A DNA stretch of 64,000 nt, taken from the NCBI GenBank assembly GCA_000165345.1, contig CM000434.1:832001-896000 (forward strand). The letters run 5' to 3'. A program made the position numbers and the translations under genes. The notes under the pieces are model-generated. The model was given only the letters and a program-made list of their open reading frames with translations. It was not told where the DNA came from and ran no database searches. Positions within the stretch are counted from its first letter, which is position 1; each line of letters opens with the position of its first letter. This document shows positions 6,583 through 62,095 of the stretch, piece after piece.

Positions 6583-7588
6583 ATGAAATTCCAAAGTGAG
6601 AAAAATGAGGAAAATAAAGAAAGCATAAATAAGTCATCTTCAGCATTGATAAACTCATTAAGAAACCAAATTAATAAAGTATCAGCCTTGAATAAATTTC
6701 GCTTCATAAATAGTAATAAAAAGCCACTTGAAAATGAAGTCCAAATAAGTGATATTGCAGATAAAATTCGCAATAAGATCTCAATAAATAAGTTAAACAA
6801 GAGTCCAGGGCTTGAGCATACAAACAATAAGTATTCTGAAGAAATTGGAGGCGCTTATTCACCATTTAGAAAGAGAAATAAAAATAATGAAAAATATTCC
6901 TTGCAAAATAAAATGTCAAATTTTGAACAAACCAGATCAGAACTTGAGAATCTCTTACTTTATAATATCAACAAGCTGCGTCATGAGAGAATTAAGCTGA
7001 AAAACTGCCAAATGAATAAAAATAATAGTCATGATGAGAATGAAATTCTATTTCCAAATATTTATACACCTCTATCTTCAATGAAGTTTATGAATATCCA
7101 AGAATTATTTTTGTTTCTTTCATTGTTTTATCATAATTACCAAAGAGAGTGGATCTTACCATTATTAAATAACTTGAAAAATCTCGAAATAATCTTTTTC
7201 ACCCCAGAAAGTACTTCATCTTCATACTCTTCAACAATAATTACAGGTAGATACACTAAAATTTTAAATGAGGAATATTTGTTTTCAAGCAATGCACCAA
7301 TTTCAAAACTGATTTTAAATTCCGCAAAGTAAGTTACATTTATTAATTCCACTTTATAGCTTAATGCTTACTTAAAATTTCCTGAATAAATATTAATTTA
7401 TCTTTTATTTAAGGTGGCAAAAGGTTTCAAAAATTATAGAATCAGAAAATATTCAAGATTTCTCAACTGCTGTGTTTATATTTATTAACCCAAATATAAT
7501 TCAAACAAGTGAATGTGTATTTATCTCATCAGGTCTTTTCTTCATTTGCAACTTTGCACACCTCTTAACTTGTTTTGTTAGCAAGTAA
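6583..7588 (+). CDS. Hypothetical Asn/Lys-rich protein; candidate 2-exon model join(6583..7328,7414..7588) giving a hydrophobic C-terminal tail
   Basis: The 249-aa ATG-initiated ORF ends at a TAA that sits inside a GTAAGT donor (7329..7334). A downstream acceptor TTTATTTAAG (ending at 7413) splices in frame to 58 more stop-free codons. Those codons end in a hydrophobic tail, VFIFINPNIIQTSECVFISSGLFFICNFAHLLTCFVSK. This is a de novo prediction with no recognised family. Confidence 0.45.
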
Positions 7589-7735
7589 AACACTAGAAAT
7601 TGTCGAACTTGGTCTTTTACCAACATTTAATATTATTTGTCTACTTCAACTTTTATTTACTCTTTTTTTAATTATTAATACTATTTCTATTTCAAAAATA
7701 TTTTGTCCACATGAAATTTATTAATTTTCACACAT

Positions 7736-7849
7736 ACCGGTACTAAATATTTCTGATGACGTGTATAATTTTTTTTAATAAGTTTGCATGTGGAAATTGT
7801 CATACCGGTATATGCAATTACTATTATGTGTGGAAAAATTGCATGTAAG
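7736..7849. promoter_or_regulatory. Motif cluster ACCGGT x2, TGCATG x2, GACGTG
   Basis: ACCGGT occurs at 7736..7741 and 7804..7809. TTTGCATGTGG is at 7793..7803, GACGTG at about 7759 and GCATGTAAG at 7841..7849. The cluster lies about 520 bp upstream of the AAMP-like gene. Confidence 0.35.
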
Positions 7850-8366
7850 AAGTAGATGTTTAGAAGTGGTTGCATTGATGAATTTTAAATATTAAAAATA
7901 TAATTTCGAGAGTTAATTAAAAAAAAATGCATATATAATAATAATAATTGTGGATGTAAATTTAATAAATAATGTTTCTTATTTATTATTGAATTGGCTA
8001 TAATCCAGAAAATAATCTACAATAAGTGAAATTGAGAAGAAAGTAACCTATGCTTAAAAAATACAAGTAAAAAAGTAAATAATTTGAATCAAGGGTAATA
8101 ACTAAAAATCAACAAATAATCATTTTTATCTACCCTTATATATTGCAAGAGATTCATTAATATTGATCGACTCATAATATTTAATATTAGCAAATCGGAA
8201 TTTTTTTTTATTCCATAATTCTAAAATGGTAATTAATTGCCTTTTTTAGACTGGGCGGGAAGTCGAAATATTATTTAAAGTTTAAGCTTGACATTAAGAA
8301 AAAAAAATTTGGATTTGGTGTTATTTAGGAAAAAGTTGTGAGAATTTGTTTGTTTAAGTACTAAAG

Positions 8367-9725
8367 ATGGATATGGAAATAGATTCAAATATTTCAGATG
8401 AAGAATATACTGGAATGGATGAAGATCCAGTATTGATAGTATCTGGAGATGAGCTTGATAGGTAAGTTAAAAGAAAATAACATTAGAACTTGATTAATAT
8501 TAAAATCGCACTAAATAAAACTTTTAGGGATGATGAAGATGAGGAAATGCCACTCTTTGATGTTCCTGATGAATCATCAGCTACAATCTTATCAATTGAT
8601 TCTCCAATTTGCTGTATAGATATAGATCCTACAAGAAGAGGTCGAATATTATTCGGAGGATGTGACGATAAAGCATATGTATCAAATTTACCAGAAAATC
8701 CTGTCTATTCTAGTGAGCAGGGAACTGAGAGACTTAACTTAGGTTTTGAAAAAGTATTTCAAGGTCATTCAGATACAGTTTCATGCGTTTCTTATTCAAC
8801 GGATGGAAAATATTTTGCAACAGGAGGTTGTGATGGAACTATAAGAGTTTATGGTAATGAAGTTTCAAATGAAGGCCAACTTATTTCAATTCTGGAGGGT
8901 CCATCTGATGAGCTTGAATTCATAAGGTGGCATCCGCGTGGACCATGTATATTTGGAGGTGGAGTAGATGGAACAGGATGGCTATGGATGGCTCCTGATG
9001 GAAGAGTATTATCTGTACTTTCTGGTCATGGAGATAGTATTACATGCGGAGATTTTAGTAATGAAGGTAAAATAGTTTGCACAGGATCTCTAGATGGAAG
9101 CGTAATTATTTGGAATCCAAAAAATGGAGAAAGTTTGCACAAAATTACAAGAAATAGTTTTGTTAATAACGCAGGTGACTCATCTTATTTAGAGGAATTG
9201 GGTATAGTTTCAATGAGAAGTCACAAAAAGAATCCGTTACTTGCTGTTGGGTTTACTAATGGTTTATTTTCTCTAATTCAACCTGATACTGGCAAAGTTC
9301 TAAGCTTAAACAACAGACATCATGATTCTCTAGATTGCATTGAATTCATTAATCATTTAGAAGATCCTCTGTTAGCTACTGGAGATATGTCTGGAGAATT
9401 AATTGTTTGGAATTATGAATACAATAGAGAAAATTTTGTAATGAAGAATCAGGAATTGGAACATTCAAATGGAGTCTTGCCTGGTATTACTAGTATATGC
9501 TGGGGTGGAGATAGAAACAATACCTTAATTGCAACGGGGTGTTTAGATGGAACTATTAGATTATGGGACTTTAGAACAGGAGAAAATGTTAAAATTCTTA
9601 AAGGGCATAAAAGTGGAATATTATCCATGAAAATCGTAGAATTCGGTTTTCAAGGAACCAACGTATTAAGGATGGTATCTACAGGAGATGATGGAAGATG
9701 CTTACTTTGGGATGTAAGAATGTAA
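8367..9725 (+). CDS. AAMP/Sqt1-like WD40 repeat protein (probable ribosomal uL16 assembly chaperone); join(8367..8461,8528..9725)
   Basis: Exon 1 runs from ATG 8367 to a GTAAGT donor at 8462 and encodes an acidic N-terminus, MDMEIDSNISDEEYTGMDEDPVLIVSGDELD. A 66-nt intron ends at the acceptor CTTTTAG (8527), and the reading frame is preserved as AG|G. The WD40 body shows block similarity to AAMP: FGGCDDKAYV, GHSDTVSC, EFIRWHPRGP, DGTGWLWM and TGSLDGSVIIWN. Confidence 0.75.
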
Positions 9726-9790
9726 TAAGGAAAAAAAACAAGATTCAAATCATAATAATTTTAAAAGTGACTAAATTCTGTCTATAATCA

Positions 9791-27752: not shown

Positions 27753-28393
27753 TTAAATCTCCTCTCCACTTTCCTCTGTATCAATATCGCTTATATTCAT
27801 TCCATTATCATCCACAATGTATGATTGCATCTTGCAATTTTCCAATGGTGCTTTTTGAATATTCATTATCTATATAAAGAAAAATTAATTAAAACAATAA
27901 ATTTTTTCGAAATTATTAATAAAAACTCTCAATAATCACTTACCTTCTCGACTAAAGAATAGTCACCTTTCGAACATTGGTCGTACATTTCACAAATCAA
28001 CTCAGCGACCTCCAAATCACTATCATCTTCTACAATAGTAGAAAATCTTGTTTCCATTGCTTCCATTAAGAAATTTGCCAAATTATTCGAATTTACCTTC
28101 CTTCCTATAAATTATTAAAAGTTAATTTTTCAATGATTTTTTCCCACCTCTAGTAATAAAGAGTAACAGACGTTTCTACCTACCTGATTGAAAAGACATT
28201 ATTACTTCCTGAATTAATTCTTCACGCTTCTTATTTGCAAACCTGCCTGACCATCCTCCTTCTACTGAAAGGTTCAAAATAGTCCTTAAAATTGTTACTA
28301 TTGATCAAGAATAACATTACAGAACTCAACTCACCATGTGGAAAATACTTGGTTGACTCCTTGTACAAAAACTTGAAAACGTTGTGAGTCCAT
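27753..28393 (-). CDS. TSR2: Pre-rRNA-processing protein TSR2 homolog (eS26 chaperone family), multi-exon; exons 28458..28335, 28264..28184, 28104..27944, 27869..27753; 5-prime end unresolved
   Basis: This gene is absent from the ORF track. Four exons are joined by introns of 70, 79 and 74 nt with GTGAGT, GTAGGT and GTAAGT donors, YAG acceptors and consistent phases. The product reads ...NVFKFLYKESTKYFPHVEGGWSGRFANKKREELIQEVIMSFQSGRKVNSNNLANFLMEAMETRFSTIVEDDSDLEVAELICEMYDQCSKGDYSLVEKIMN... and ends in an acidic tail. The central blocks match the TSR2 core as I remember it (AVENSWGG, FDTVVEDGS). The only ATG (28393..28391) lies in a different frame from the spliced downstream frame. Confidence 0.55.
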
Positions 28394-28556
28394 TGGAATA
28401 TTAAAGCGAGAAAAAATCTTAAAATAATACTAAATGGTCTATATTGTAAATATTCAAGCTATAATTTAGAAAGTTTAAATAAATTATACTTATTCTTCAC
28501 TAATTCTTATATACCTTTTTTTTACCTATTATCTCTCAAATATTTAAAAAAGACTG

Positions 28557-35222: not shown

Positions 35223-35294
35223 GGGGTTATCCGGGAATCGAACCCGGGACCTCATGTACCCGAAACATGAATCATACCACTAGACTAACAACCC
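35223..35294 (-). tRNA. tRNA-Pro (anticodon CGG)
   Basis: The reverse complement is GGGTTGTTAGTCTAGTGGTATGATTCATGTTTCGGGTACATGAGGTCCCGGGTTCGATTCCCGGATAACCCC. The acceptor stem GGGTTGT/ATAACCC has one G-U pair. The anticodon stem is CATGT/ACATG with loop TTCGGGT, giving anticodon CGG. The T-arm is CCGGG-TTCGATT-CCCGG. The D-arm GTCTAG(T/G)GGTATGATTC matches the conserved eukaryotic tRNA-Pro D-arm as I remember it. Confidence 0.85.
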
Positions 35295-36430: not shown

Positions 36431-36558
36431 TGCATGTAAGTCGTCCACAAAAATGCATGTAAATACCGGTTTATGAAAAAATGTGTATGACACGTGTATA
36501 TCAATTTTTTCAAAAAAAAATAGTGGGTATGACATCATAAATAGAAGCAGTTGCATGC
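36431..36558. promoter_or_regulatory. Divergent promoter motif cluster (TGCATGTAAG, TGCATGTAAATACCGGT, ACACGTG, TGCATGC) between P5CR and the mucin-like gene
   Basis: ACCGGT is at 36465..36470, ACACGTG at 36490..36496 and TGCATGC at 36552..36558. Confidence 0.35.
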
Positions 36559-43716: not shown

Positions 43717-43901
43717 GCATAGGAAAAACTACCCCACAGAATAATCATTCCAACTCTTCATGAATTACTTTGAAATAAAAAAAAAGATTTAAAAGGGAAC
43801 TAAGAAAAATTACAAAAATACCTAAGCAATAAAATTTGATTTCTTCCTCCTTCCCCCCATAAATCTAATATTAAAAATTTTTTAAAAAAAATATATAAAA
43901 A

Positions 43902-43945
43902 GGTACCCGGTACCTTTTTTTTGAAAGAAATTATATATGCCGGTA
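43902..43945. promoter_or_regulatory. Palindromic GGTACCCGGTACC plus GCCGGTATATT
   Basis: There are two ACCGGT-type elements 30 bp apart, about 280 bp upstream of a candidate first exon at 44221. Confidence 0.3.
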
Positions 43946-44561
43946 TATTATTTAACGGTGTGAAGATTAGCAAGAAAACTTTTTTTTTATTTAGGATCAT
44001 GGAAACTTGAAAGATTTGAGTTTTAATAGAGAAACAGTCAAAGCAGCTTTTTTTTTTTCTTCCTTTTATAACTCTAACTTAAGACACCAATAAATGGTGG
44101 ATCTGGAAATAAATATATATTAATATATTTCGATAATTCACCCGAAGTAAAAATTTGAAAATGCTGAAAATTGATAGGCAAAATAAAAAAGGGGCCTCTC
44201 AACCATTAGAAAGAAATATTATGAAATGTTCTCCTGAAGTAAGTTTTGAAAATGAGTAGGAAAGTTGGAGAAATGTATTTATAAATGTTATATTATATGC
44301 ATTACCAATTCCTTTATTTATTTGATTTCAACGTTATTATTATTCTATTTATATAAAATTCAAATTTTAAATATTTAAATATTAGATTAATTTAAGTTCC
44401 TTTGCATTTTTATTTTCTGAAATGGTTCAATATTCCCTATCTTGCCTGAAACCAGGAATTAGGCTTGAAGATAAGTAAGTTGATAAAATATTGACTTTAT
44501 TACCTTTGATGGATTGCAAATTGTTAATTATTAACTCTTTTAAAATTAAAGACTTCATGAA

Positions 44562-45111
44562 ATGGGGATTTCTGTTGGATTTAAAATAGTTGAGCTAATT
44601 TCAATTAGAGATAAAGCTCATCAAAAAAGAGAAACTAGAATACTTCAAATTCTTTCTTTTATATCTCAAAAGTGTTGGAAGTATTTATTTGGACATACTG
44701 GGGATTTACTTAAAGGGCAGGAATCTGATGATGAATGTAAGTTGAAAAATTATGATTTAAAGCTCAGAAAACCAAGAATATTTAAATTTCTTTTTCTCAG
44801 ATATGATCAATGATAAAAATCTTCTTTTAAACAAATTCATCTCTGTACCAAGGGTAGGTAGTGTTTGAATATTATTACAATAATAATAATTTTAACAAAA
44901 TGATTAATTAACCAATATTTAGGATCTTGAACATATTAATTGTGGTGCATATGCTGCAGGAATTGTATCAGGTATTCTAGATAGTTCAGAATTTCCTGCC
45001 AATGTGACAGCTCATACCACTGAAGATACCCCAAATAACTATAGTACAACCATTTTGATTAAATTCGACAAATCTGTACTTCTTAGAGATAAATCTATTC
45101 AATCATTTTAG
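44562..45111 (+). CDS. TRAPP complex subunit TRAPPC5/Trs31 (Bet3 family); join(44562..44736,44801..44853,44923..45111), with possible extra 5-prime exons 44221..44238 and 44456..44474
   Basis: The track shows only an 83-aa fragment. GTAAGT donors at 44737 and 44854, with acceptors TTTTTCTCAG (ending 44800) and ATATTTAG (ending 44922), give an in-frame product: ...RETRILQILSFISQKCWKYLFGHTGDLLKGQESDDE-YMINDKNLLLNKFISVPR-DLEHINCGAYAAGIVSGILDSSEFPANVTAHTTEDTPNNYSTTILIKFDKSVLLRDKSIQSF. This matches the TRAPPC5 C-terminus as I remember it (FPAKVTAH....TTLMIKFDESVIARD). Confidence 0.65.
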
Positions 45112-45225
45112 TGAATAACTTTTTACTCATTTTCACTCTTATTTACAGAATTAGCTTGAATAATTATTTATATCAATATTAGATTATATACTTGATTACC
45201 AATAATTGTTGAATAATAAAAACCA

Positions 45226-48102: not shown

Positions 48103-50520
48103 ATGAGCCAAGATCGAAATAATTCATATAAATTGGATAAATCTAATTTAAATATTAGACAGATTATTTCAAAAAATATATATCCAATTGAGGTTTTATT
48201 AAAACTTTATAAGCCTTTAAATGTTCCAAGAAGTATCTTCAAATTGGAAACAGCTATTCAAAGGAGTAATATTCACACTTCGAATAATTTTGGATTTTCA
48301 AGAAATTCTGGCTCTAATAGACAATACTCTAATTATTTAGAAAGAAAACATAAAAATGGATATTTTAATAATCAAAATAAAGCTTTCAGTACGTTTGATA
48401 CAAATCACTCCCCCACAAAAAATCCACAAGTTTTTGAAGAGGGAGGAGCTAATGGAATAAATAATGGGTATTCTTGGAGGAAGAATAAGCCTATAACAGA
48501 TAATAATGTTAATCAAGAATCTAAACGTGGAAATCATACCAAACCAAGTAAAAACACTGAAAAAGTGGAGACTGCAATAGGATTTAGCGCTCGTAACCAA
48601 TTAACTGATTTAGAGAAAGATATGTCATCCATTGAGAAAATCTTAAACAATAGGTTTGAAAAGGAGAGCATTGATTCTGAGAAATTTATTAGAAATAAGC
48701 TTGTTATGGCATTAGAAGGAATTGACTCGAGAATTTCTCAAAGTCACAATACCGAAACGCTGTCGGGTGTTAATAATAGTGAGAAAATCAAAGTGCCATT
48801 TTCTGATAAGTTAATTGATACTGGAAGTGATTTAACTGATGAAAAGGCTCATAATGTAATTCACAGTGATTTCAAAGACATAATGTTATCTAATTACTAT
48901 TATCATGGTAATTGTGCAACAGCAGATTCAAGACTATTTAAGAGTAATATAGTCAAAAACAATGTATTGAATGGTAAGTTTGTAAACAATTCAAGAACCG
49001 TTCAGAATATAAGCTGTAACAATGATCTTAATAGCTTTAATGAGAGTAATATAGGAATTGATAGCAATAATATAAATGTTAATTTATTGGGTATTGAAAC
49101 TAATAAAGACCATTCAAGGGTAAATAATATCCAAAACAACTTTAATAATTTCAGAATTGATAACCAATTAATTCAAAATCAACATAAAGTTGGTCTGGAA
49201 ATGAGACAAGAAATAGATATGCTTAATATTCCGATTTGGTTATATAAAGAATCAGGTTCTTTAACAGTGAATGGACCTTTTTCAACAAGACATATGAGCA
49301 GTTTATGGAAAAGTTATACATTTACTCATGAAACATTGTTTACAATGACTTCAAAACATGTTTGGGGACCAATAAACTTATTTTACCCAGATGTTAAATC
49401 AACATTTACTTATATTCCTGATTTGGAAGTAATATTACAAAGACTTACAGATTCTTCAATCCAAAATGATAAAGTAGAGAAAATTAAAAGTGAGGATATT
49501 TCATCTATTATTTCAGAAATCAATGAGCTACAATTAGATGTTGGTGATCACCATATTTCTGCTCCGAAGTTGATTAGTAATGAAAAGGTGAATAAAAGTT
49601 TTAATACTGAAAAGAATTTATCCAGTACTCTAAGTTCTGGAAAAGATTCAGTTAAAGTGAAAGATTTAAAGTCTGATCGTGATAACTCAGTTGTCGAATC
49701 ACAAAAAAGTGAGAATAATTGTGATCTTGTATCAGAAATAATACAACCTTCATCCGCAAAAGTTCCTTGGGGAGGGGTTACTACTGAAAATTTTAAAGCA
49801 AAGAGAGAAGTTGTGAATTTCCAGGATATATTAAGAGAGGAAGAGATCACTTCTAAGGAAAAGCTTAGAATAGAAGCTATGAATCGAGCAAATAATAAGA
49901 GCAATAATTTGGAAGCTTTCAATAATAAAGATACACCTAAAGGTTGGAAAAGAATTCCGAAGGAAAGATCGTGTATTTTTTTGGATTCAATTGATGAACA
50001 AGATTCTTCAGTCAATGATCAAACTAATCAGATCTTATATAAAGTACCTTACTCGAATAATATTAATATTAATAATGGGAATAAATGGAAAGGTTGGGGA
50101 ATCAAATCTGGAGAATCAACAAATGCTGATTTATTTGAAACCATTGCTTTGAATTCGGTCAATAACTTTTCAACGAATCAAATACAACGAAACAATCAAA
50201 AGGGTTTCTGGGAAATGTGTAATTCCGACTCTTTACACAAAAGTTATATGTGGGGTAATAATAATCGTATTATGACATGTAATCAAGTTAATGAAAACAT
50301 TGGTTCAGAGGTAATCGATCATAAAGCAGAATGTAGTTTTGATGAGATTGAGAAGGAAGAAATAAATAAAGACCTTTACAAGGAATCTGAGCTTAATACC
50401 ACAACCAAACTTTTAAATCATAAAAATAAGAGAAAAAAAGGAAAGAAAGTAGACTCATCTCTGTTAGCTTTTGGAATCCGTTCAGACAAACCACGAAATT
50501 TGAATTATGATTTGGATTAG
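48103..50520 (+). CDS. GYF-domain-containing low-complexity protein
   Basis: The 805-aa ORF starts at an ATG and is Asn-rich. The central segment NIPIWLYKESGSLTVNGPFSTRHMSSLWKSYTFT fits the GYF consensus W.Y.D..G...GPF....M..W...GYF. There is a basic C-terminus, KNKRKKGKK. Confidence 0.5.
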   Translation: MSQDRNNSYKLDKSNLNIRQIISKNIYPIEVLLKLYKPLNVPRSIFKLETAIQRSNIHTSNNFGFSRNSGSNRQYSNYLERKHKNGYFNNQNKAFSTFDTNHSPTKNPQVFEEGGANGINNGYSWRKNKPITDNNVNQESKRGNHTKPSKNTEKVETAIGFSARNQLTDLEKDMSSIEKILNNRFEKESIDSEKFIRNKLVMALEGIDSRISQSHNTETLSGVNNSEKIKVPFSDKLIDTGSDLTDEKAHNVIHSDFKDIMLSNYYYHGNCATADSRLFKSNIVKNNVLNGKFVNNSRTVQNISCNNDLNSFNESNIGIDSNNINVNLLGIETNKDHSRVNNIQNNFNNFRIDNQLIQNQHKVGLEMRQEIDMLNIPIWLYKESGSLTVNGPFSTRHMSSLWKSYTFTHETLFTMTSKHVWGPINLFYPDVKSTFTYIPDLEVILQRLTDSSIQNDKVEKIKSEDISSIISEINELQLDVGDHHISAPKLISNEKVNKSFNTEKNLSSTLSSGKDSVKVKDLKSDRDNSVVESQKSENNCDLVSEIIQPSSAKVPWGGVTTENFKAKREVVNFQDILREEEITSKEKLRIEAMNRANNKSNNLEAFNNKDTPKGWKRIPKERSCIFLDSIDEQDSSVNDQTNQILYKVPYSNNININNGNKWKGWGIKSGESTNADLFETIALNSVNNFSTNQIQRNNQKGFWEMCNSDSLHKSYMWGNNNRIMTCNQVNENIGSEVIDHKAECSFDEIEKEEINKDLYKESELNTTTKLLNHKNKRKKGKKVDSSLLAFGIRSDKPRNLNYDLD

Positions 50521-50669
50521 GGATCAAATATAGTTAAATATTTAAAATGATCATTTATCAATCTTTTTTTTTACTATTTTTGAATATTTCTTGTATATTA
50601 TTTAATGTATATAATTGTAGAATTTTTCTTTCCCCCCACATACACACACATGTGGACAAATAATTCAAT

Positions 50670-50739
50670 ACCGGTATTTCGTAATATGACAAAATTGCAT
50701 GCACATACGTGTAAAAAAAGTTTGCATGCAATTACGTGG
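50670..50739. promoter_or_regulatory. Motif cluster ACCGGT, TGCATGCACATACGTG, TGCATGCAATTACGTGG
   Basis: ACCGGT is at 50670..50675. TGCATGCA occurs twice, each followed within 10 bp by ACGTG. The cluster is about 700 bp upstream of the 51438 gene. Confidence 0.35.
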
Positions 50740-51437
50740 TAGAAAGTAGATTATTATGCGAATAAGTAAATGCGATTAGTTTTTATAAAGTTAGTTTTAA
50801 TATATGAAATATAAGATTTTTTTTTCTTCTAAATTTGTTTCATCAGAAAAAAATTGGTAAAGAATAAATTTAGTTGAATAAAAAATAATAATAATAATAG
50901 GAAAACTTTAACTTTGATAAATAGTGGTTAAGTGAGTTATTATGGCCTTTAGCTACAAAAAAAATGGCTACACAGTTTGGCGGCAAGTGCGTAGAAATTG
51001 TGGATGTGTGTGAGAATGGAAATAAATTAAGCTGGAGAAAAAAAAAAAATCGTATTTAATAAAGTAAATGGAAAAGGCCTGCTCAAATAGAGAGGAAAGA
51101 AAGACCAAGAAAGAGAAATAGTATTGATCCAGCGAGAAGTGAAGAAAAGTAGGCGAGTAAAGATAGGAAAGAACGAAGATTGTGAAGTTGAAATATTGGA
51201 GTAGATGAACATAAATTGAGCCATAATAAAGAGGTATATATACATATATCTATATATGTATATATGCAATATATACGTGGAATGCATAATTAATAGAGAT
51301 ACAAGTTTCGAAGCAAAGGCATTTTCACGCACAAAATAATTTATTTTCTAGGTATTAAATTAAATTACATGAAATTAAATCGGAAATTTCAAAAGGAAAG
51401 CAAATATAATTGAAATTTTAGTGGATAATTCAATGAG

Positions 51438-52787
51438 ATGAGTTACAATATTGACTGGCCAAGGCAGGATTCCATTGATAATATTGGTTGTTCATATGAA
51501 AACTTAAATTATGAACATAGATCAAGTACCGCATCTAATGGTGGGAAGAGCAGAGAAAATAGCATATATGCTAACACTGCGTTATTCGAAGATCATTTTT
51601 CCCCAAGACTTTCGGAGGGTCTGAACTCAATGAGATTTTCGGATATTGGGGATATGACAGAGGAAGAGTGGTAAGTTGAGAAGCAAACATTTGTTTCATC
51701 TAATACGTTATCTAATTATTATTATCATTATTATTCTAGGAATAAACAACAACAAAGACAAAACTCACAGAGATATGATGCTTTGTATATTGTAAGTGAG
51801 AAAGAAGAAGATATCATGAAGATGAAGGGTACTAAGGACAAGTTGAAATTCAAGGAAATTGGTAATGAATCAAGAAAAACCAATAAAGATTCAATTTCAG
51901 ACACTTCACTGGGATATATTTGTAGTTTGATATATAACTTCAGAAACAATAATACAATAAGAAGTAAACAGTCACAACTTACTTTATGGGAAATTATGAA
52001 ACAGTTTTACCTGATTAACAATTTATTTTTTATACTTAAAGTCTTAAAAACTTTAATTTCAAGTAATAAGACTCATAGACTAAGTCAAGATATGGGATGG
52101 GTTTCTTTTATGTGCCTATTATCAACTTTCATGACCAGTATATTGGCATATTTAACGAGATCATTCATATTTTATCATCGTATTGCTGATAAATATACAA
52201 ACAAGTTATTTTCACCTTTTCATGTTTATTGCCAAATAAGAAAAGTTGGTGACGAAATGCCTGAAGCTTTATTCATGCTGGAAAGAGTTAATTGGACTTA
52301 TACTTTAATAATGCATATATTGGAAGACATTCCCCAATTATTTGCATCTTCAATTTTCTTATCATACTATGGAAATGATTTTTATGCATTCTTCATGATC
52401 ACATGGAGTTCTTGTATGATCATTACAACTTCCATCAGAATGGGTATTTCTTATCCTCTTATTGGAACTTTAAGTCTTATTTTCTCCAGAAAACCTCCCG
52501 TTGATTCGCCTACTTTGAATGAAGCAACCACAACAACATTGCATTTTCCTCTGTTTATGGCTGCAATCACTTTTATTTGGGCAGTTTCAGATAGTTTATG
52601 TCTATATTTCACTCATGGTTTCTGGACTATCCTTTTTTATTTTGGTCTAACAGCAAATATTCTTGCATCTACATTGTTTATATTATATTATGTACATCTT
52701 TCTAAGCAAGCATCAGCATATACGCGCCAATTAAATTCACTTTATTTTACAGAAGACTTTAGCAGAATTCAGTCAAGACATTTTTAA
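51438..52787 (+). CDS. Hypothetical multi-pass membrane protein; join(51438..51670,51740..52787)
   Basis: Exon 1 is a 78-aa ORF. By my count its ATG is at 51438, whereas the track lists 51444. It ends ...GAGTG|GTAAGT. A 69-nt intron ends TTATTCTAG (51739). TG+G restores Trp and continues into the 334-aa downstream ORF (track start is a TTG). The 426-aa product has 7 or more hydrophobic helices. The family is unknown. Confidence 0.6.
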
Positions 52788-52903
52788 GTTTTAGTATATT
52801 TTAGAAAAACTGGTAAAGTTATTGCAAGACTCAAGTCTATTTTCTTTATTGTCAGAAAATAGGCTAGCTAGGTTTTGAAATGAAAGTATGACGTGGTAAT
52901 ATT

Positions 52904-53533
52904 ATGCAAAGACTAACTCATGTAACTTGCTTTTTTCTAATTGTGTGTGGATGGGTAATTAATGTATTTTGGCCTTTTGTTGAAGGAATAGGAATAAGAG
53001 ACTTAGAAATTCATGGTACTTCAAAAAATAGTCAAAAAAATTCTTCTAATATTACATACTCTTGGTTTTTAGAAAATCCCAATGAGTTTGTAGAAGGAGA
53101 AAGTAGCAATAATGATACTAACTTAATAGGTACTTCGATACCATATAAAATTGAAGATGAAGATTATAAGTTAACTAAAGATACATCATATTATCAAAGA
53201 AAACATCATGATTTACTCTACTTAGATCAAGTTGGGATCTGGGTAAAGTTTCACGATTATGCCTCAAATGTTGATATATTAGTAGAAAGTACACAAACAA
53301 GAAATACTTTAACAGATTCTAGTCGCAAATATGGAAGATTGTTGGAAGATCAAATCAAAGGAAATCTAAGTAGAAATGGTTCAAATGAAGATCTTGGGTT
53401 ACACTCCTTAAGAAAAAATGGCAGGAAAAGTGGTTGGTGTTTGTTTCATTCATTTTTCCAAGTAGTTTCAAAAGATTGGTTGCTTGGCTGGAACTTTATA
53501 TGCAATTATTTTAAAGAATTCATACTGAAATAA
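52904..53533 (+). CDS. Hypothetical small secreted protein (209 aa)
   Basis: The ORF starts at an ATG with an N-terminal signal-like segment, MQRLTHVTCFFLIVCGWVINVFWPFVEG. The remainder is hydrophilic, and no domain was recognised. Confidence 0.45.
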   Translation: MQRLTHVTCFFLIVCGWVINVFWPFVEGIGIRDLEIHGTSKNSQKNSSNITYSWFLENPNEFVEGESSNNDTNLIGTSIPYKIEDEDYKLTKDTSYYQRKHHDLLYLDQVGIWVKFHDYASNVDILVESTQTRNTLTDSSRKYGRLLEDQIKGNLSRNGSNEDLGLHSLRKNGRKSGWCLFHSFFQVVSKDWLLGWNFICNYFKEFILK

Positions 53534-54324
53534 TTGGATAACTTTAAAAATAACAAGTTAAAAGGGCAAATGTTTATTTAATATTTTGAAATGTATAGTT
53601 TATCTACAGTACAGAGCTCATTGTTTGAGTGATGAACTTTAAGTCTTGGCTAATGGGAGAAGCAGGAAAGTCAGAACAGGAAACAAAAGATTTAACTTCT
53701 TTAGAAAATTAAAATCTTTTTATTAGACAGATTAGGATAACTATTTCAGATAAATGTTTATAAACACCCATAAATTCCAGTAATATTTATGGAGATACGT
53801 GGTAGTGGCGATATGGTTGGCGGGCCATAAGAGGAAAAGTTATAAAATAACTCAAAGCAGATAAGCCAAAGAGTTGTTAATTAAGAGCGGAAAGATTAAG
53901 TACAATAAAAAGAAATAGAAATTTATGTTAGATGATGGAACATTAGAATTAGGAAATGTGTTGATTCAGTTTAATTCCTTTAAATTTTTTAATATCAAAT
54001 TTGCATGTAAATTTTTTTTTTATCAAATAATTCAGTATCGATAATATATAAATTTATGCTTGGAATTTAGCCAAAAAGGCGCCAACCAGGCTTGCATGTC
54101 TCGTATTCGAGTATACTAAGGATAGTATATTATATTGGATATTGGGGGAATTAATAATATAAAAAAGATAGGCGCATGGACAGAGAGGATACTGCACACC
54201 AATATTGTATATATAAAGAAATAACCCACTTTATTTAGTTGAATCTTAGATAGATAAACTAATATTTTCGATATTTCTTAATTTTTTTTTTAAAAATTTG
54301 GAAGTGAAGCAAAACTTTTGCTAA

Positions 54325-55386
<1,062 letters not shown>

Positions 55387-55962
55387 ACTAGAACTTAAAG
55401 ATAAGTAAGAACGGAGTAAAACTTTTCGATACATAAACTCTCAAATTGGCATCATTTTATCGGCAATTGTTTTGCAAACCCTTTCAATGTCAACATGTTT
55501 TTCTCTGGCGCAAGCTACCATCTATCTCAATCGGATTTAAACATAAATGCCAACTTTCCCTGCTTCAAATCATCCTCTGCCACCACAGTTCTCTCGACTA
55601 CTCGTAGGGAAATACTGATGTTAAATTGCTAGCGTTGAAAGTGGTTCTTTGGGGGGTCCAGGGAGTTAGCGAGTTGTGTGTAAATGAACATTTACTACCA
55701 AGACTTACTATCGCATGCAGTTTAATCGCCTTTGAAGACTTTCTTCATTATTAGTGTCAAATAGTTTATTTCTCTGTTAATCGAAATGTTAATTACTCAA
55801 TTTCAATCTCAATTAGACCCTTTTTTCTCGAAAAATCGATCTGAGCTTTACTTCATTTAGTTTAATGTTTAGGAGCGAACTGTCCACATAAAATTAGTCA
55901 AGCATTACGTATATTGCTATTATGCTTTGCATGAATGGGGGGCGAAATAGTATTTTTTTATA

Positions 55963-56019
55963 CCGGTATGCAAGTGGAGTGCAAAGAAATTACTAATTTG
56001 CATGTTTTTGGCGCCAAAG
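55963..56019. promoter_or_regulatory. ACCGGT + TGCATG + palindromic E2F-like TTTGGCGCCAAA upstream of hexokinase
   Basis: ACCGGT is at 55963..55968, TGCATG at 55999..56004 and TTGGCGCCAAA at 56009..56019. The cluster lies about 215 bp upstream of the hexokinase ATG. Confidence 0.4.
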
Positions 56020-56234
56020 TTTGTGAAAAATTTCTGAATTTATTAATTATTTAGAATTATCATTTAATATAAATTAATAAAGTTATTGGTAGAAATTAGT
56101 AAGTGTGATATAAGTATCAGTATAATTGAACGGTCTGATTAATATTTCTGAGCAAGGTAAAGATAGAAAAGAAATAAATTAGAAATTTACGACTATAATA
56201 TAAATATATATAATTAAATTAAAACAAAGCTAAA

Positions 56235-57791
56235 ATGGAAGAGGAAAATCAAGCCAAGAGGCTGTTTGATTTATATGAAGAATATTTTTTCCTTTCAAAT
56301 TTAAAGCTGCTGGAGTTGGTTGATGATTTTCACAAATCTTTAGAAGACGGACTTGAAAATCACGCAAATCGACTAAAAATTGACAAATACCATTCCAATT
56401 ACAAGCCTTTTAAAATGTTAGACTCTTGTGTTGATAGACTTCCAACTGGGAAGGAAAAAGGAGTTTATTATGCTATTGATATGGGTGGCACTAATTTACG
56501 ATGTGTTAGAGTAAATTTACTTGGTAATGGCCAAAGTGAAACAAAATTTAAAAAGGTTAAATTGTCAGAAATGAAAGTGTCTTCTACTGGGAAGGTTGTA
56601 AATAGCAACAAAATTTCCAAAGTTGATCAAGAAGTCAATATTTTTGATAAAACTGTATCTTCAGAAACAATGTTTAATTCAATTGCAGTTTTCTTTAATG
56701 AGTTTTTGGATGAATGTGGCGACTTAAATGATTTGACCAATGATAATAATGTAGGCAATCTCCCATTAGAAGTTGGCTTCACCTTTTCTTTTCCTATCGT
56801 GCAATCTAAAATTGCAAGTGCAAAACTGGTAATATGGACAAAAGAAATTGAAACAGGTAGATTAACTGATGATCCTGTTGAAGGAAAAGATATTGGTGAT
56901 TTATTGAATTTAGCCTTTAAAAGAAATGGAGTACCAGCTCAATGTAAATGCGTTTTAAATGATACAGTTGGAACCCTTATATCAGCAATGTATGATTTAA
57001 ATATTAATAATTATTGCGACAATAACCACTCTTTAAAAGTTAATTTTCCAAATAATATATCTGAAAATCAACCATTAATTGGAATTGTGGTTGGAACTGG
57101 AGTAAATGCTTGCTACCTTGAACCAAATTCTTCAAATTTTGGTTATAAAGGAGTTATTATTAATACAGAGTGTGGAGACTTTTATTCAACCAAATTACCC
57201 ATAACTGATTGTGATTACTCTATGGATTGGTTTAGTGATAATAGAGGAGAACAGATATTTGAAAAAATGATTAGTGGAACTTATTTAGGAGAAATCTCTC
57301 GGTTATTAATTATCAATTTTTTAAAAAACAAAACTCCAGAGATTTTCTTCCAAAAGAATTCATTAAAAACTGAACATATTGCCAAAATTATTAGCCATTT
57401 CAATGATAATCATCAAAAATATAACCAAAACCATGATTTAAAGTCTATTGAAAATTATTTAAAGGAAACATTTTCTTCAAATCTTGATCATAATTCCACT
57501 TATATTATTGCAAAAATATCACAGATGGTACTCATGAGAGCAGCATCTCTTGTCTCAGCCATTATTGCTGCATTTTTCAAAAGGTTTAATAAGCCACGCA
57601 ATCAAATTACCATTGCCATAGATGGATCAGTTTGGACTAAAATACCCAAATTCCAAAAATACGTTAAAGATTCACTCTCATCTTTGATTCAAGAGAGCGG
57701 ATATCTTGGCTCAATACATTTTTATGAATCAGATGATGGATCTGGAAGAGGTGCTGCTATTCTTGCTAGCACTACAGTCAATACACATTGA
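56235..57791 (+). CDS. HK: Hexokinase
   Basis: The hexokinase signature blocks are all present: AIDMGGTNLRCVRV (phosphate 1), LGFTFSFP, the sugar-binding LNDTVGTL, the connect block GIVVGTGVNACY, and INTECGDF. Confidence 0.9.
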   Translation: MEEENQAKRLFDLYEEYFFLSNLKLLELVDDFHKSLEDGLENHANRLKIDKYHSNYKPFKMLDSCVDRLPTGKEKGVYYAIDMGGTNLRCVRVNLLGNGQSETKFKKVKLSEMKVSSTGKVVNSNKISKVDQEVNIFDKTVSSETMFNSIAVFFNEFLDECGDLNDLTNDNNVGNLPLEVGFTFSFPIVQSKIASAKLVIWTKEIETGRLTDDPVEGKDIGDLLNLAFKRNGVPAQCKCVLNDTVGTLISAMYDLNINNYCDNNHSLKVNFPNNISENQPLIGIVVGTGVNACYLEPNSSNFGYKGVIINTECGDFYSTKLPITDCDYSMDWFSDNRGEQIFEKMISGTYLGEISRLLIINFLKNKTPEIFFQKNSLKTEHIAKIISHFNDNHQKYNQNHDLKSIENYLKETFSSNLDHNSTYIIAKISQMVLMRAASLVSAIIAAFFKRFNKPRNQITIAIDGSVWTKIPKFQKYVKDSLSSLIQESGYLGSIHFYESDDGSGRGAAILASTTVNTH

Positions 57792-57937
57792 CCTTTTTAT
57801 AGTCCATCCTACTTTTTTGTAATTTCATTTCCGGTCATTTATTGTTTATACTTATTGTTCTTATTCATTGAAAATAATAGTAATTAATTCATCTTATTCA
57901 GATTTGTACATGCCAATGTTCATAGAAATAACAAAAA

Positions 57938-57955
57938 TTTGGCGCGCGCGCCAAA
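57938..57955. promoter_or_regulatory. Perfect 18-bp palindrome TTTGGCGCGCGCGCCAAA (E2F-like), about 230 bp upstream of CFIm25
   Basis: It was read directly from the sequence and is the only GC-rich element in that spacer. Confidence 0.4.
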
Positions 57956-58184
57956 TTTTTATTTTATTTAGAATTTAAAGAATTTCAATATTAATTTAAG
58001 GTTTTATTCTCAATATTTTTTTTTTTTTAATTAATAAATACCTTTTAAAGTTTAAATAATCCATTTGTTTGAAGTTGGAGTCCATTCTTGGCAGATATTT
58101 CTGCATAGATCTTTTAGGTCATAATTAATTTTAATCTTTAATTGAAAGTATTTTTTATGCACATTTTTTTGAATCTTTATACAA

Positions 58185-59018
58185 ATGCAGGAGGGTTCGA
58201 ATAATGTTAGTAACAATCTGATGAACGATAATAAAATTGAGGAGGATGTTTTAGAGCAGCCAACATTTTTAACAAACCAAAGTCTTTTGAACGAAGAGCA
58301 GAGTATGGCTACAAACGTTGATCATGAACCATCATGGTTAATTTATCCATTGAAGAATTATGGAATTCGAGTTCAAGATAATAGTGACGAAATTCAATCA
58401 AGTATCCCAATTAATGAAATGAATGGGTTTAATGTAAAGGTTGATAACTTTTTAAAAGATGGAATTGGACGTAGCGTTGCTGCATTAATGCTTACTCATC
58501 GTTATTTATGTCCACATGTAGTTTTACTTCAGAATGATTTAACGAGTGAATGGATGCTTCCAAATTGTACTTATAAGGCCTGGGAAAATCCTCGCATAGT
58601 ATTAGCAAACTTTTTAAAGTCAATGTTCCTTACAAGTTCGAGCATTAATAGTAATACTAATAACAGTGGAAGTAATAATGGCAATAATAATAGCTCGACA
58701 AATAATAACAATATAAATAATGCTTGTTCTGATAATGCAGTGGAAGTTGGGGAATACTTGGGAACTTGGTGGAGAACTGAGTTTAATTATTCTCCTTTGC
58801 CTTATTTACCTCCCCATTCAACAAGGCCCAAAGAAACAATAAGGATTTACCAGGTTATTCTTCCTCCAAAATTGCTATTTAAATTACCAAAGCACCATGT
58901 GTTAAAGAGCTTACCTCTGTTTGATTTGGACCCAAATATATTTGGAATAGCATGCGGTAGTATTCCCCAGCTTATTTCAAGATTTCAAATTCAATCAATG
59001 GTTCAGTCGGATAATTAG
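58185..59018 (+). CDS. Cleavage factor Im 25 kDa subunit (CPSF5/NUDT21, Nudix-fold mRNA 3-prime processing factor)
   Basis: It shows block identity to CFIm25 as I remember it: IYPLKNYGI (LYPLTNYTF), GRSVAALMLTHRYLCPHVVLLQ ([21 protein letters not shown]), GTWWRTEFNYSPLPYLPPHSTRPKE ([25 protein letters not shown]) and LPLFDLDPNIFGIACGSIPQLISRF. An Asn-rich insert is present. Confidence 0.8.
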   Translation: MQEGSNNVSNNLMNDNKIEEDVLEQPTFLTNQSLLNEEQSMATNVDHEPSWLIYPLKNYGIRVQDNSDEIQSSIPINEMNGFNVKVDNFLKDGIGRSVAALMLTHRYLCPHVVLLQNDLTSEWMLPNCTYKAWENPRIVLANFLKSMFLTSSSINSNTNNSGSNNGNNNSSTNNNNINNACSDNAVEVGEYLGTWWRTEFNYSPLPYLPPHSTRPKETIRIYQVILPPKLLFKLPKHHVLKSLPLFDLDPNIFGIACGSIPQLISRFQIQSMVQSDN

Positions 59019-59141
59019 AATTTATATTGAAAAGTTATTTTATTATTAGTAAAAGAAATAGATTTTGCTACATAATATTTTATATTATTCTCTTTTTGAT
59101 CGATTATGATAATAATCAATTTATTATTTTTATTAAATATA

Positions 59142-60545
59142 TTAATAAATAATAAATAGTAGCAGGCTGAGGATAATGGTTATTCCAAATGTAGCCATTT
59201 TAAGAACAGATTCTGAATTGGATGATAATGAGATGAACATAGGCCCATATTTACTATGTTTTGCCAATGTGAAGCCCACCATTAGGTTATCTCTATCAAA
59301 TATTGAGTAGTACTTTCGAATGAAGTTATTTCCAAGTACAAAAAGTGGACCTCTAGGAGCTGGAATATCAAGAGGGATATATCCAATGCTACAATAATGT
59401 TCTTGCGGGCCCCAATAATAGCTAAAAGCATTAAATGATGAAGGCCCTCCTTCATCAATTACATAGTCTTGAGGATCCATATGCATTTCTATCTCATTTC
59501 CATGAATATCTTCTATCACATAAGTTATTCTAGGAGAAGATAGATATCTATTACATTCTCCCTCCATGGGTATAACTTTGGTGATCTTTCTCATAAAACT
59601 ACTTGGGGCTGTGGAGACAGATGAACCAGTATCTATAGCTGCCTTGCAGTCCCCGAAGCAATAGTTCGTGCTAACCCCATTAATCTTTATATCTTTGATC
59701 TTGATTTCCCAGTAATGAGACCCAGTAAGTCGATGCCAGGTTATTTTTTGACCACTTATTGTGTATTTAGGATCAGCAGCTCCAAAAGAAATTGAACCTG
59801 GAGTACTTGAATCTCTGGAAATGTAAACTCCAAAAAGATTTCTTGGTAAAATGTTTCGTTCTTTAATATTCTCAACAATTGTTGGGATATTATTTTTTTT
59901 ACTGTTCTTATCTGGAAATCCAAGTCCTACCAAACCATCGAATGGTAATTCAGCAAAAGGAGATGTACTTTCCTCAATAGCCATCCCGAAAGACTGATCT
60001 TCTATCTTCAGCTTTCCAATATTTATGACTTCTTTACCAAACTTTAACACACAAGAACCCGTACCATATTGGATATATGTCTCCAATGATCCATCCCCCA
60101 ATTTTTGATAAGAGGTACTCAACTTTGGATCATACTTGTTGTGGGGCTCACAACCTTTATGCTTACATTCAATACTTGGAATCCATACACTGGAGCTTCC
60201 TGTATCAAAAATGACAACGAACTCTCTTGGAGGCGTTCCCACCTCAATTTTACCAAAATATTGACTATTTTGGTAATTTCTAAGATCCTGAGAGTCCATT
60301 GTCTCTGAATACTTACTCTTGGTAATCCACCTTGAAAAATAGTTGCCTTCTGAATATTTCATTCCTCCCTCAGATAGACTTAATTTTAACTCAACTTTTT
60401 GAGCATTTGAATTAAATAAGCCATTACTTAGTATAGCCTCCATTCCTAACTCTGCCCTAGCATTTGACCTAATCTTGTTTGATAATCCTTCACAAAAAGC
60501 TGATATTTTCAGCATCATTAAAATAAAAAACACTTGAAACACCAT
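59142..60545 (-). CDS. Pepsin-like (A1 family) aspartyl protease with signal peptide and C-terminal TM anchor
   Basis: Two catalytic motifs are present, FDTGSSSVWIPS and IDTGSSVSTAPS. A signal peptide, MVFQVFFILMMLKISAFC, is followed by a pro-segment, and there is a C-terminal hydrophobic tail, TFGITIILSLLLFIIY. Confidence 0.85.
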   Translation of the reverse strand: MVFQVFFILMMLKISAFCEGLSNKIRSNARAELGMEAILSNGLFNSNAQKVELKLSLSEGGMKYSEGNYFSRWITKSKYSETMDSQDLRNYQNSQYFGKIEVGTPPREFVVIFDTGSSSVWIPSIECKHKGCEPHNKYDPKLSTSYQKLGDGSLETYIQYGTGSCVLKFGKEVINIGKLKIEDQSFGMAIEESTSPFAELPFDGLVGLGFPDKNSKKNNIPTIVENIKERNILPRNLFGVYISRDSSTPGSISFGAADPKYTISGQKITWHRLTGSHYWEIKIKDIKINGVSTNYCFGDCKAAIDTGSSVSTAPSSFMRKITKVIPMEGECNRYLSSPRITYVIEDIHGNEIEMHMDPQDYVIDEGGPSSFNAFSYYWGPQEHYCSIGYIPLDIPAPRGPLFVLGNNFIRKYYSIFDRDNLMVGFTLAKHSKYGPMFISLSSNSESVLKMATFGITIILSLLLFIIY

Positions 60546-60791
60546 CTTGTATGTTGCACACTACTACGTTAAACTCTCTTTTATTTTATTTTGAATCTCA
60601 TTAGTTCTTTACACTTTAATTTCTCTTTAATTAATGTTTGTTTCAGAGTAGCTCCTACCTATATTGATGATTTGCAATTACTTTATTTTATTATTATTAT
60701 ATATACATGTAAATATTTACATATATATCTATATATATTTTTTTTTTGGTTTGAATTACATGTAATTATTGACTTTTCATGTTTTTTTATT

Positions 60792-60836
60792 TGCATGTAA
60801 ACACCGGTACGTGGCCTCTAGCAATAACCACGTAAT
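60792..60836. promoter_or_regulatory. TGCATGTAAACACCGGTACGTGG ... ACCACGTAA motif cluster in the aspartyl-protease / Rab1 divergent spacer
   Basis: ACCGGTACGTGG is at 60803..60814, flanked by TGCATG and a second ACGTA element. Confidence 0.35.
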
Positions 60837-61198
60837 AGGCGGTAAAAAAGCCAACCATTTGCCGCCAAAATACAGATAGCATGCTAATTATTTAAAATTT
60901 TGTAAGATTGCGGATTTTAAGGCAAATTAAAAGGAGGCAGGCTTTAATTTAAATAAGCTTCATGACAAAAAGTTGAGAAGAAAGAGATCTTATTTTTATT
61001 GAATATTTGTGTGTGTCTTTTCTCTTTTCAAAAGTATATTTGTCTCGAGAGAAAATTGAGATTATTCAGGAATAAAGTTGGTTTGTTTGAGGCATTTTGA
61101 TAAATAAAAGGAATAAGGGGTGTATAATATTCTCAAAATTAGAATATCATATACGCACACAGACATATTTGTTTATTTATTTACATATCAGGGTAAAG

Positions 61199-62095
61199 AT
61201 GTCAGCAGTTAGACAAAAGGAATAGTAAGTTGAGTATTTTTGGGCAAAGCGGGTATATTCATAACATGAGATAAAGATTGATTTTTGAAGTAAATATGAG
61301 GTGGAATATAATAGTGTAGATCTCATAAGTTTCTTGGCTTTTGCTCAGATCAGCTATTGGATGGCAAAATTCTAACATTATTAATTCATTTTTAGCGATT
61401 TTCTGTTCAAATTGGTTCTTATTGGAGATAGTGGAGTCGGAAAATCTTGCCTATTATTGAGATTTGCAGTAAGTTTTTACTTAAATTCAGGCAAATGTTC
61501 ATTCTTTGCCTAAATTCTATATTAGAGCGCAAAGTAATTTTCTTTTACTTAACAGGATGATTCTTTTACTGACAGCTATATCACTACAATTGGTGTGGAT
61601 TTCCGATTCAGAACTATCAAAATTGATGATAAAATAATAAAATTACAAATCTGGGATACTGCAGGACAAGAAAGGTTTAGAACCATTACTTCAGCATACT
61701 ACAGAGGTGCTGATGGAGTAGTACTTGTATATGATACAACTTCAACTTCATCTTTTGACCACATTGACGAGTGGGTAACTGAAGTTAACCGTTATACAAC
61801 CGACTCCACAAAAATCCTTATTGGAAACAAGTGCGATTTAACCTCACAGAAGATGGTTGACTTTGCTACCGGACAAAAAAAAGCTCAAGAGCTTCAAGTT
61901 GATTTCATGGAATCGAGCGCCAAAAATTCTACTAATGTCGAAGAATGCTTTGTAAACATAGCAAGAAAACTTCTAGAGAAAAAGCTGAAGAATGGCGAAA
62001 CTTCATCCAAACCCATTAATTCCCAGAATATCTACTTAAACCAGCATGGAGATGGTGGTTTAATTTCAGGTGTACTTTCTTCTTGTTGTAAGTAA
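61199..62095 (+). CDS. Rab1/Ypt1-family small GTPase; join(61199..61224,61396..61468,61556..62095)
   Basis: The track shows only the third exon, with a GTG start. Exon 1, ATGTCAGCAGTTAGACAAAAGGAATA|GTAAGT, is joined to exon 2 through the acceptor TTTTTAG (ending 61395). Exon 2 has a GTAAGT donor at 61469, and the next acceptor is TTAACAG (ending 61555). The product is [85 protein letters not shown]...GNKCDL...[12 protein letters not shown]...SSCCK. G1-G5 boxes and the Rab1 effector loop are all present. Confidence 0.85.

Follow-up and report, generated by a model that had tools for sequence, protein, structure and literature searches.

Spliceosomal introns and their density in a stretch of Cryptosporidium parvum chromosome 6

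Sixteen introns in eight genes

The DNA analyzed here, a stretch of 64,000 nucleotides (nt) that we call the window, is part of Cryptosporidium parvum chromosome 6. It corresponds to approximately 829 to 900 kb of CP029785.1, CP141123.1, and CM109966.1 and is also found in BX526834.1 (exact look-up with four unspliced proteins). Over the stretches that were compared, window positions 1 to 20981 and 49142 to 64000, it is identical base for base with CP141123.1 (IOWA-BGF). The GC content is about 30% throughout, and the gene order, running roughly from cgd6_3600 to cgd6_3830, is that of the public C. parvum annotations. According to public gene calls, the whole window holds 29 protein-coding genes plus two transfer RNAs (tRNAs), with 25 of these genes and one tRNA lying within positions 6583 to 62095. 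The initial annotation, made from the letters of the sequence, had described introns in at least seven of about 31 genes of the latter region and had proposed the gene at 6583 as a candidate eighth. All seven named genes and the eighth candidate carry spliceosomal introns, although the proper denominator is 25.

Introns were implied in these eight genes because the annotated span of each exceeds three times the length of its product plus a stop codon. For each gene, we enumerated all combinations of GT..AG introns that leave an open frame of the annotated length from the annotated start to the annotated stop. The enumeration gave a single solution in six genes; for TSR2, TRAPPC5, and Rab1, it gave one solution with consensus sites each, beside a few poor ones. 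The rebuilt models contain 16 GT-AG introns in total, and all nine spliced proteins (both TRAPPC5 variants counted) are residue-identical to public entries with NCBI accessions. The genes, with product lengths in amino acids (aa), and their introns are as follows, with comparisons to Cryptosporidium ubiquitum and Cryptosporidium meleagridis.

6583 to 7588, + strand: cgd6_3600, hypothetical protein, 306 aa when spliced; exact match to QOY41245.1, WRK32965.1, and CAD98401.1
7329 to 7413, + strand: cgd6_3600 intron, 85 nt, GTAAGT..AAG, phase 2; donor conserved in C. ubiquitum, with CAG at the homologous acceptor
8367 to 9725, + strand: cgd6_3610, WD40-repeat protein, 430 aa; exact match to QOY41246.1 and others
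8462 to 8527, + strand: cgd6_3610 intron, 66 nt, GTAAGT..TAG; same position in C. ubiquitum (GTAGGT..TAG, 65 nt)
11717 to 12989, - strand: cgd6_3625, membrane protein, 367 aa; exact match to QOY41248.1 and others
12774 to 12829, - strand: cgd6_3625 intron 1, 56 nt, GTAAGT..TAG; conserved in C. ubiquitum, with a 7-nt indel within the intron
12503 to 12561, - strand: cgd6_3625 intron 2, 59 nt, GTAAGT..CAG; conserved in C. ubiquitum, with a 1-nt indel within the intron
12119 to 12172, - strand: cgd6_3625 intron 3, 54 nt, GTAAGT..TAG; position conserved in C. ubiquitum, identity 68.5% versus 76 to 87% in the flanking exons
27753 to 28393, - strand: cgd6_3665, TSR2 homolog, 145 aa; exact match in C. 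parvum and Cryptosporidium hominis annotations; Pfam WGG, 1 to 80 of 80
28285 to 28334, - strand: TSR2 intron 1, 50 nt, GTGAGT..AAG; exactly missing from an ENA contig; boundaries conserved in C. meleagridis
28105 to 28183, - strand: TSR2 intron 2, 79 nt, GTAGGT..TAG; exactly missing from the ENA contig; boundaries conserved in C. meleagridis
27870 to 27943, - strand: TSR2 intron 3, 74 nt, GTAAGT..TAG; exactly missing from the ENA contig; boundaries conserved in C. meleagridis
35366 to 36318, - strand: pyrroline-5-carboxylate reductase (P5CR), 284 aa; exact match to QOY41258.1 and others
36199 to 36296, - strand: P5CR intron, 98 nt, GTATGT..TAG, phase 1; conserved in C. ubiquitum (GTACGT..TAG, 100 nt) and C. 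meleagridis
44161 to 45111, + strand: TRAPP complex subunit 5 (TRAPPC5), 197 aa; Pfam TRAPP, 1 to 154 of 154
44239 to 44385, + strand: TRAPPC5 intron 1, 147 nt, GTAAGT..TAG; a rival annotated version spans 44256 to 44396 (199 aa)
44475 to 44551, + strand: TRAPPC5 intron 2, 77 nt, GTAAGT..AAG; position conserved, acceptor CAG in C. ubiquitum
44737 to 44800, + strand: TRAPPC5 intron 3, 64 nt, GTAAGT..CAG; conserved in C. ubiquitum and C. meleagridis
44854 to 44922, + strand: TRAPPC5 intron 4, 69 nt, GTAGGT..TAG; conserved in both relatives, with 11- and 8-nt indels within the intron
51438 to 52787, + strand: cgd6_3770, transmembrane protein, 426 aa; exact match to QOY41263.1 and others
51671 to 51739, + strand: cgd6_3770 intron, 69 nt, GTAAGT..TAG, phase 2; conserved in C. 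ubiquitum, with a 14-nt indel within the intron
61199 to 62095, + strand: Rab1-type GTPase (Rab1), 212 aa; exact match to QOY41269.1 and others
61225 to 61395, + strand: Rab1 intron 1, 171 nt, GTAAGT..TAG; conserved in C. ubiquitum, with 1-, 3-, and 2-nt indels within the intron
61469 to 61555, + strand: Rab1 intron 2, 87 nt, GTAAGT..CAG; conserved in C. ubiquitum, with 2-, 3-, and 1-nt indels within the intron

The rebuilt models bear out the intron counts given earlier for the named genes: one in the AAMP-like gene (cgd6_3610), three in cgd6_3625, three in TSR2, one in P5CR, four in TRAPPC5, one in the 51438 gene (cgd6_3770), and two in Rab1. They also contain the 22-nt first exon of P5CR (36297 to 36318, - strand), and the statement that the open reading frame (ORF) track fragments or misses the intron-bearing genes is true for all eight. 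The donors comprise 12 GTAAGT (75%), two GTAGGT, one GTGAGT, and one GTATGT, the last four each differing from GTAAGT at one position; these are the four hexamers that had been listed, and they account for all 16. Pyrimidine-AG acceptors had been described throughout, which fits the 10 TAG and three CAG sites but not the remaining three, which are AAG. The introns average 81.6 nt with a GC content of 22.3% and range from 50 to 171 nt, so that the earlier limits of 54 to 100 nt were too narrow; 13 of the 16 lie within them, and TSR2 intron 1, TRAPPC5 intron 1, and Rab1 intron 1 lie outside. A YTRAY motif can be found in most introns, though its distance from the acceptor is not consistent. The first intron falls within the first 20% of the coding sequence in seven of the eight genes (P = 8e-5).

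Comparison with related species supports these models. Syntenic DNA was available from C. ubiquitum for 13 introns and from C. meleagridis for eight, which jointly cover all 16. The C. ubiquitum counterparts of all 13 introns tested begin with GT and end with AG at the corresponding sites. Across this comparison, the exons are 84.5% identical and contain seven gap runs, every one a multiple of 3, whereas the introns are 68.4% identical and contain 25 gap runs, 16 of which are not multiples of 3. Frame-breaking indels occur inside introns only. The contrast is also visible in single genes, with identities of 67.7% in the intron and 85 to 88% in the exons of cgd6_3610 and of 58% versus 83 to 86% in cgd6_3770. 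C. meleagridis shows the same pattern for TSR2 (three introns), P5CR, and TRAPPC5. The P5CR intron differs from those of both relatives by 1- to 2-nt indels confined to the intron, and TRAPPC5 intron 2 has 7- and 6-nt indels within it in the cross-species alignment.

With the introns removed, each gene has a single continuous ORF for a complete, conserved protein. The Pfam domains Ras, TRAPP, WGG, F420_oxidored, and P5CR_dimer are essentially full-length across the splice junctions. In P5CR, F420_oxidored is matched over 1 to 94 of 94 from residue 6 and P5CR_dimer over 1 to 105 of 105. In Rab1, whose first two exons measure 26 and 73 nt, the Ras domain is covered over 1 to 161 of 162 from residue 14; the P-loop GDSGVGKS, encoded by exons 1 and 2, is therefore present only after splicing. 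Splicing is needed for functional proteins; it provides the P-loop of Rab1, the start codon and N-terminal residues of P5CR, the TRAPP and TSR2 domains in full, and the hydrophobic C-terminal tail of cgd6_3600. The cgd6_3625 product has an N-terminal hydrophobic segment and a C-terminal transmembrane segment. For cgd6_3610, a Pfam scan and a PDB sequence search returned generic WD40 matches only, and the label AAMP was not confirmed.

Transcript-like evidence was found for TSR2. The 564-nt ENA contig ERZ21845938 NODE_14264 equals window positions 28484 to 27718 on the - strand minus exactly the three TSR2 introns and looks like an assembled spliced transcript. For the annotation of IOWA-ATCC, introns are stated to be 100% supported by RNA sequencing (RNA-seq) (Baptista et al. 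2022, PMC8744675). It weighs against our reading that the transcript evidence obtained here is for TSR2 only and that the other 13 introns lean on this published blanket statement. The splice signals are also more frequent than chance would give: there are 18 copies of the heptamer GTAAGTT where 9.4 would be expected, and verified donors account for 11 of them. The annotation matches, the cross-species alignments, the Pfam coverage, the TSR2 contig, and this excess are five independent lines of evidence that the introns are real.

Alternatively, the interruptions could be frameshifts, sequencing errors, or pseudogenes instead of introns. The fragmented ORFs, and nothing else, would fit such an explanation. 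Against it, three species and a number of independent assemblies show the same structure, consensus GT-AG ends bound every one of the 16 interruptions, and there is one contig that is an exact spliced sequence resembling complementary DNA. We regard this explanation as almost certainly wrong. Frameshifts, pseudogenes, and chance GT..AG pairs were all considered and rejected.

The ENA contig extends past the TSR2 coding sequence by 91 nt upstream and 35 nt downstream, which gives minimum lengths for the untranslated regions of the TSR2 mRNA.

Annotation status and the models of cgd6_3600 and TRAPPC5

The current references, IOWA-ATCC (Baptista et al. 2022) and the telomere-to-telomere IOWA-BGF assembly (CP141123.1), agree with our models in all eight products and in gene order. 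Identical models for all eight genes are found in IOWA-ATCC (QOY412xx) and BGF (WRK329xx), and 43IA8 (WKS784xx) and CPHLJ (KAL53682xx) have identical models for seven of the eight. The initial annotation had proposed a comparison with the reference annotation, allowing that identical models might already be present, and this is what the comparison returned. The identity removes the novelty of the models and leaves their correctness standing. The suggestion that annotation of the region may be incomplete applies to early and ORF-style models, which missed or truncated genes, but not to the current references, which already contain these models. In Iowa II (2004), P5CR, TRAPPC5, Rab1, and cgd6_3770 are "partial," and the WD40 gene (392 aa) and cgd6_3600 (249 aa) are truncated; no Iowa II entry for cgd6_3625 or TSR2 is present among the cluster members listed. 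Prokaryote-style gene calls on Logan contigs also fragment or miss these genes. The missing and truncated models were corrected by reannotations between 2015 and 2023.

The annotations disagree among themselves only on the products of cgd6_3600 (249 or 306 aa) and TRAPPC5 (197 or 199 aa) and on the start codons of a few genes. The first of these genes is annotated as a spliced 306-aa product in BX526834, IOWA-ATCC, and BGF and, as a point against that reading, as an unspliced 249-aa product in Iowa II, C. hominis, Cryptosporidium tyzzeri, 43IA8, and CPHLJ. The donor of the intron overlaps the stop codon of the unspliced reading, and exon 2 encodes a hydrophobic C-terminal tail. Some models, and especially this 3' intron with its donor over a stop codon and its AAG acceptor, could be annotation artifacts. 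In addition to the 249-aa annotations, the C. ubiquitum ortholog can be cited in favor of an artifact, as it is annotated as a 270-aa protein (LRBP01000017.1, L020:4214-5107) that takes another acceptor and has an unrelated tail.

DNA alignment with C. ubiquitum speaks for the intron. The donor AAAGTAAGTT is conserved, and the intron has diverged to 64% identity with indels of 10, 3, and 2 nt and has CAG at the homologous acceptor site. Exon 2 (175 nt) keeps 84.6% identity and is free of indels up to a stop codon that both species share. Its 27 differences include 20 at third codon positions, and the codon changes comprise 18 synonymous and seven nonsynonymous ones. In the annotated C. ubiquitum model, the acceptor lies 11 nt further downstream than the conserved site, and the resulting tail is frame-shifted and nonhomologous; splicing C. 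ubiquitum at 4963 to 5032 instead gives a 307-aa protein collinear with that of C. parvum. Because donor, indels, acceptor site, and exon 2 conservation agree in this way, we conclude that the cgd6_3600 intron is real and, as judged by comparative DNA alignment, that the annotation dispute is settled. The candidate eighth gene of the initial annotation accordingly stands, with one intron. An artifact is extremely unlikely. The C. ubiquitum model is probably mis-spliced at a wrong acceptor, and the 249-aa models of several species are probably truncated.

A further possibility is that cgd6_3600 has two outputs, with intron retention switching between a soluble and a membrane-anchored protein. 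The phase 2 GTAAGT donor contains an in-frame TAA, so an unspliced mRNA would end at residue 249 and might yield a soluble form, and the spliced mRNA would add a conserved 57-residue C terminus with a hydrophobic segment that resembles a tail anchor. Regulated intron retention could then act as a switch between soluble and membrane forms. We consider this unlikely, though worth stating. The evidence shows purifying selection on exon 2, which bears on the spliced form only.

For TRAPPC5, both the 197- and the 199-aa forms are in public entries, and the difference lies in the first intron. The GTAAGTT donor at 44239 is invariant across three species, and C. ubiquitum has a 1-nt indel between the candidate donors at 44239 and 44256. 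These two observations disfavor the 199-aa model and favor the 197-aa model; on this alignment, the 199-aa model is probably wrong at its first intron.

The BX526834 annotation (2003) also merges TRAPPC5 and the 2,269-aa gene that lies upstream of it, giving a single product of 2,335 aa (window positions 36907 to 45111). Several Cryptosporidium canis entries of 2,157 to 2,338 aa, named "signal peptide-containing protein" or "subtilisin," fall into the TRAPPC5 cluster, and a fusion error of this kind is suggested for them as well. Start codons vary among C. parvum annotations for the genes at 13474 to 15486 on the - strand (649 or 670 aa), 58185 to 59018 on the + strand (265 or 277 aa), and 59142 to 60545 on the - strand (458 or 467 aa).

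Taken together, the introns are an already known feature that had been read correctly, and the comparative resolution of the cgd6_3600 intron and of the first TRAPPC5 intron is the only small addition. The biological weight of this outcome is limited. It confirms that correct gene models can be obtained for Cryptosporidium when splice signals are read by eye, and its practical value lies in flagging truncated or "partial" Iowa II models, the 249-aa cgd6_3600 orthologs, and the 199-aa TRAPPC5 model.

Intron density and noncoding sequence

The initial annotation had considered the density of introns in this region unusually high for a genome described as intron-poor. The description as intron-poor holds, and the judgment on density depends on the baseline. 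Within positions 6583 to 62095, eight of 25 genes (32%) contain introns, or seven of 25 (28%) without the disputed cgd6_3600; the share for the whole window is 8 of 29. The proportion of intron-containing genes in C. parvum was 4.3% in the original (2004) annotation and 10.8% in the 2015 reannotation (PMC4637869), and it is 18.9% of 3,896 genes in IOWA-ATCC (PMC10438818, Table 1). Against 18.9%, the binomial tail is P = 0.084 for 8 of 25, P = 0.18 for 7 of 25, and P = 0.17 for 8 of 29, with an overall range of 0.08 to 0.30. A 9.1-Mb genome contains about 142 windows of 64 kb, of which about 12 to 43 would be expected to look alike at these probabilities. The share is modestly above the genome-wide value, but not significantly so even before the number of windows is allowed for, and the claim of an unusually high density is not upheld.

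Several points weigh against this assessment. The observed 28 to 32% is numerically above 18.9%, and the difference from the 10.8% of 2015 is nominally significant (P = 0.004 to 0.03). The value of 18.9% comes from one secondary table, in which it is unstated whether coding introns or any exon break was counted. Against the 4.3% baseline, P is well under 0.001.

Gene length provides an explanation for the excess. No intron-containing gene encodes more than 430 aa, whereas products of up to 2,330 aa occur among the 21 genes that lack introns (Mann-Whitney P = 0.014). The apparent high density results from the many short genes, which are the intron carriers here, and from an outdated expectation of about 5% in place of 18.9%. 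The description that 5% of genes have introns is outdated, the figure for IOWA-ATCC being about 19%.

A genuine local hotspot would imply nonrandom clustering, for example, in a block of highly expressed housekeeping genes that resists intron loss. The share of 8 of 25 genes relative to 18.9% genome-wide is in line with this, as are the 16 introns in 64 kb where about 4.8 would be expected from the 2015 total of 688. The Evr1_Alr (sulfhydryl oxidase) gene, about 5 to 6 kb past the end of the window, could extend such a cluster; it must carry several introns because it encodes 140 aa in a 751-nt span (L015:929-1679). The probabilities of 0.08 to 0.30 were obtained prior to any correction for the roughly 142 windows and for post hoc selection, however, and the length of the genes accounts for the effect. 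A raw count of introns also exaggerates the enrichment, since introns that share a gene are not independent of one another. We therefore regard a hotspot as very unlikely. The window is very probably a normal, syntenic stretch of C. parvum chromosome 6 with ordinary, already annotated introns at an unexceptional density.

A splice-site weight-matrix scan of both strands placed the 16 known introns within the top 17 candidates, and nothing else that it ranked was convincing as a coding intron. The scan is partly circular, its matrices having been derived from these 16 introns; the runners-up were recombined known sites, followed by weak or antisense candidates. The intron count is therefore unlikely to grow. 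The top splice-like candidate that reuses no verified site lies at 51909 to 51982 on the - strand, antisense inside cgd6_3770. It spans 74 nt and has a perfect GTAAGTT donor, and it could be a chance occurrence or the intron of an antisense long noncoding RNA.

A search of the noncoding DNA for unannotated conserved exons by comparison with C. ubiquitum yielded only short promoter-like blocks. An Rfam scan of the window found only the two tRNAs:

163 to 235: tRNA-Gln
35223 to 35294: tRNA-Pro

The 16-nt motif GCATGTAAAYACCGGT occurs twice in the window, at 36455 to 36470 and 60793 to 60808 (+ strand), against 0.03 occurrences expected. Each copy lies in upstream intergenic DNA, the first in the interval that separates P5CR from the 2,269-aa gene and the second in that separating the aspartyl protease gene from Rab1, and both fall within blocks that are about 90% conserved with C. 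ubiquitum; the motif is probably a promoter element. Two further noncoding blocks conserved with C. ubiquitum, at 50957 to 51038 and 62112 to 62172, have GGCGG/GGCGCC cores (TTTGGCGGCAAG and GATGGCGCCAAA) and are located upstream of cgd6_3770 and of a 719-aa gene. The blocks may resemble the E2F-like motif that has been reported from Cryptosporidium promoters.

Comparison with known intron systems

The 16 introns are canonical U2-type GT-AG introns of the usual Cryptosporidium kind, short and AT-rich. Genome-wide, the 688 introns of the C. parvum reannotation average 99 nt and 22% GC, with mean lengths of 84 to 99 nt typical of the genus (Isaza et al. 2015, PMC4637869, Table 1), and an earlier study reported 84% GTAAGT donors, a mean length of 82 nt, and no clear branch-point consensus in C. 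parvum (Irimia and Roy 2008, PMC2483917). The introns of the window resemble these genome-wide sets in their short length, GC content of about 22%, predominance of GTAAGT, and unclear branch point. They differ in having AAG acceptors in 3 of 16 cases, and the intron-containing genes have 3.0 exons each versus 2.6 genome-wide.

The near-invariant GTAAGT 5' splice site would be expected to pair extensively with the U1 small nuclear RNA. A 5' bias of introns in intron-poor genomes is usually ascribed to recombination with reverse-transcribed mRNA, by which introns toward the 3' end are lost preferentially, and this general knowledge would suggest a similar historical cause for the bias seen here.

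With the intron-poor hemiascomycete yeasts, these introns have in common a strong consensus at the 5' splice site and a pronounced bias in position toward the 5' end (PMC2483917 and general knowledge). Very short first exons also occur as they do in yeasts, with the 22 nt of P5CR and the 26 nt of Rab1 as examples. The two systems part at the branch point, which is a strict TACTAAC in yeasts, whereas C. parvum has no such strict motif (PMC2483917) and none is evident in these introns.

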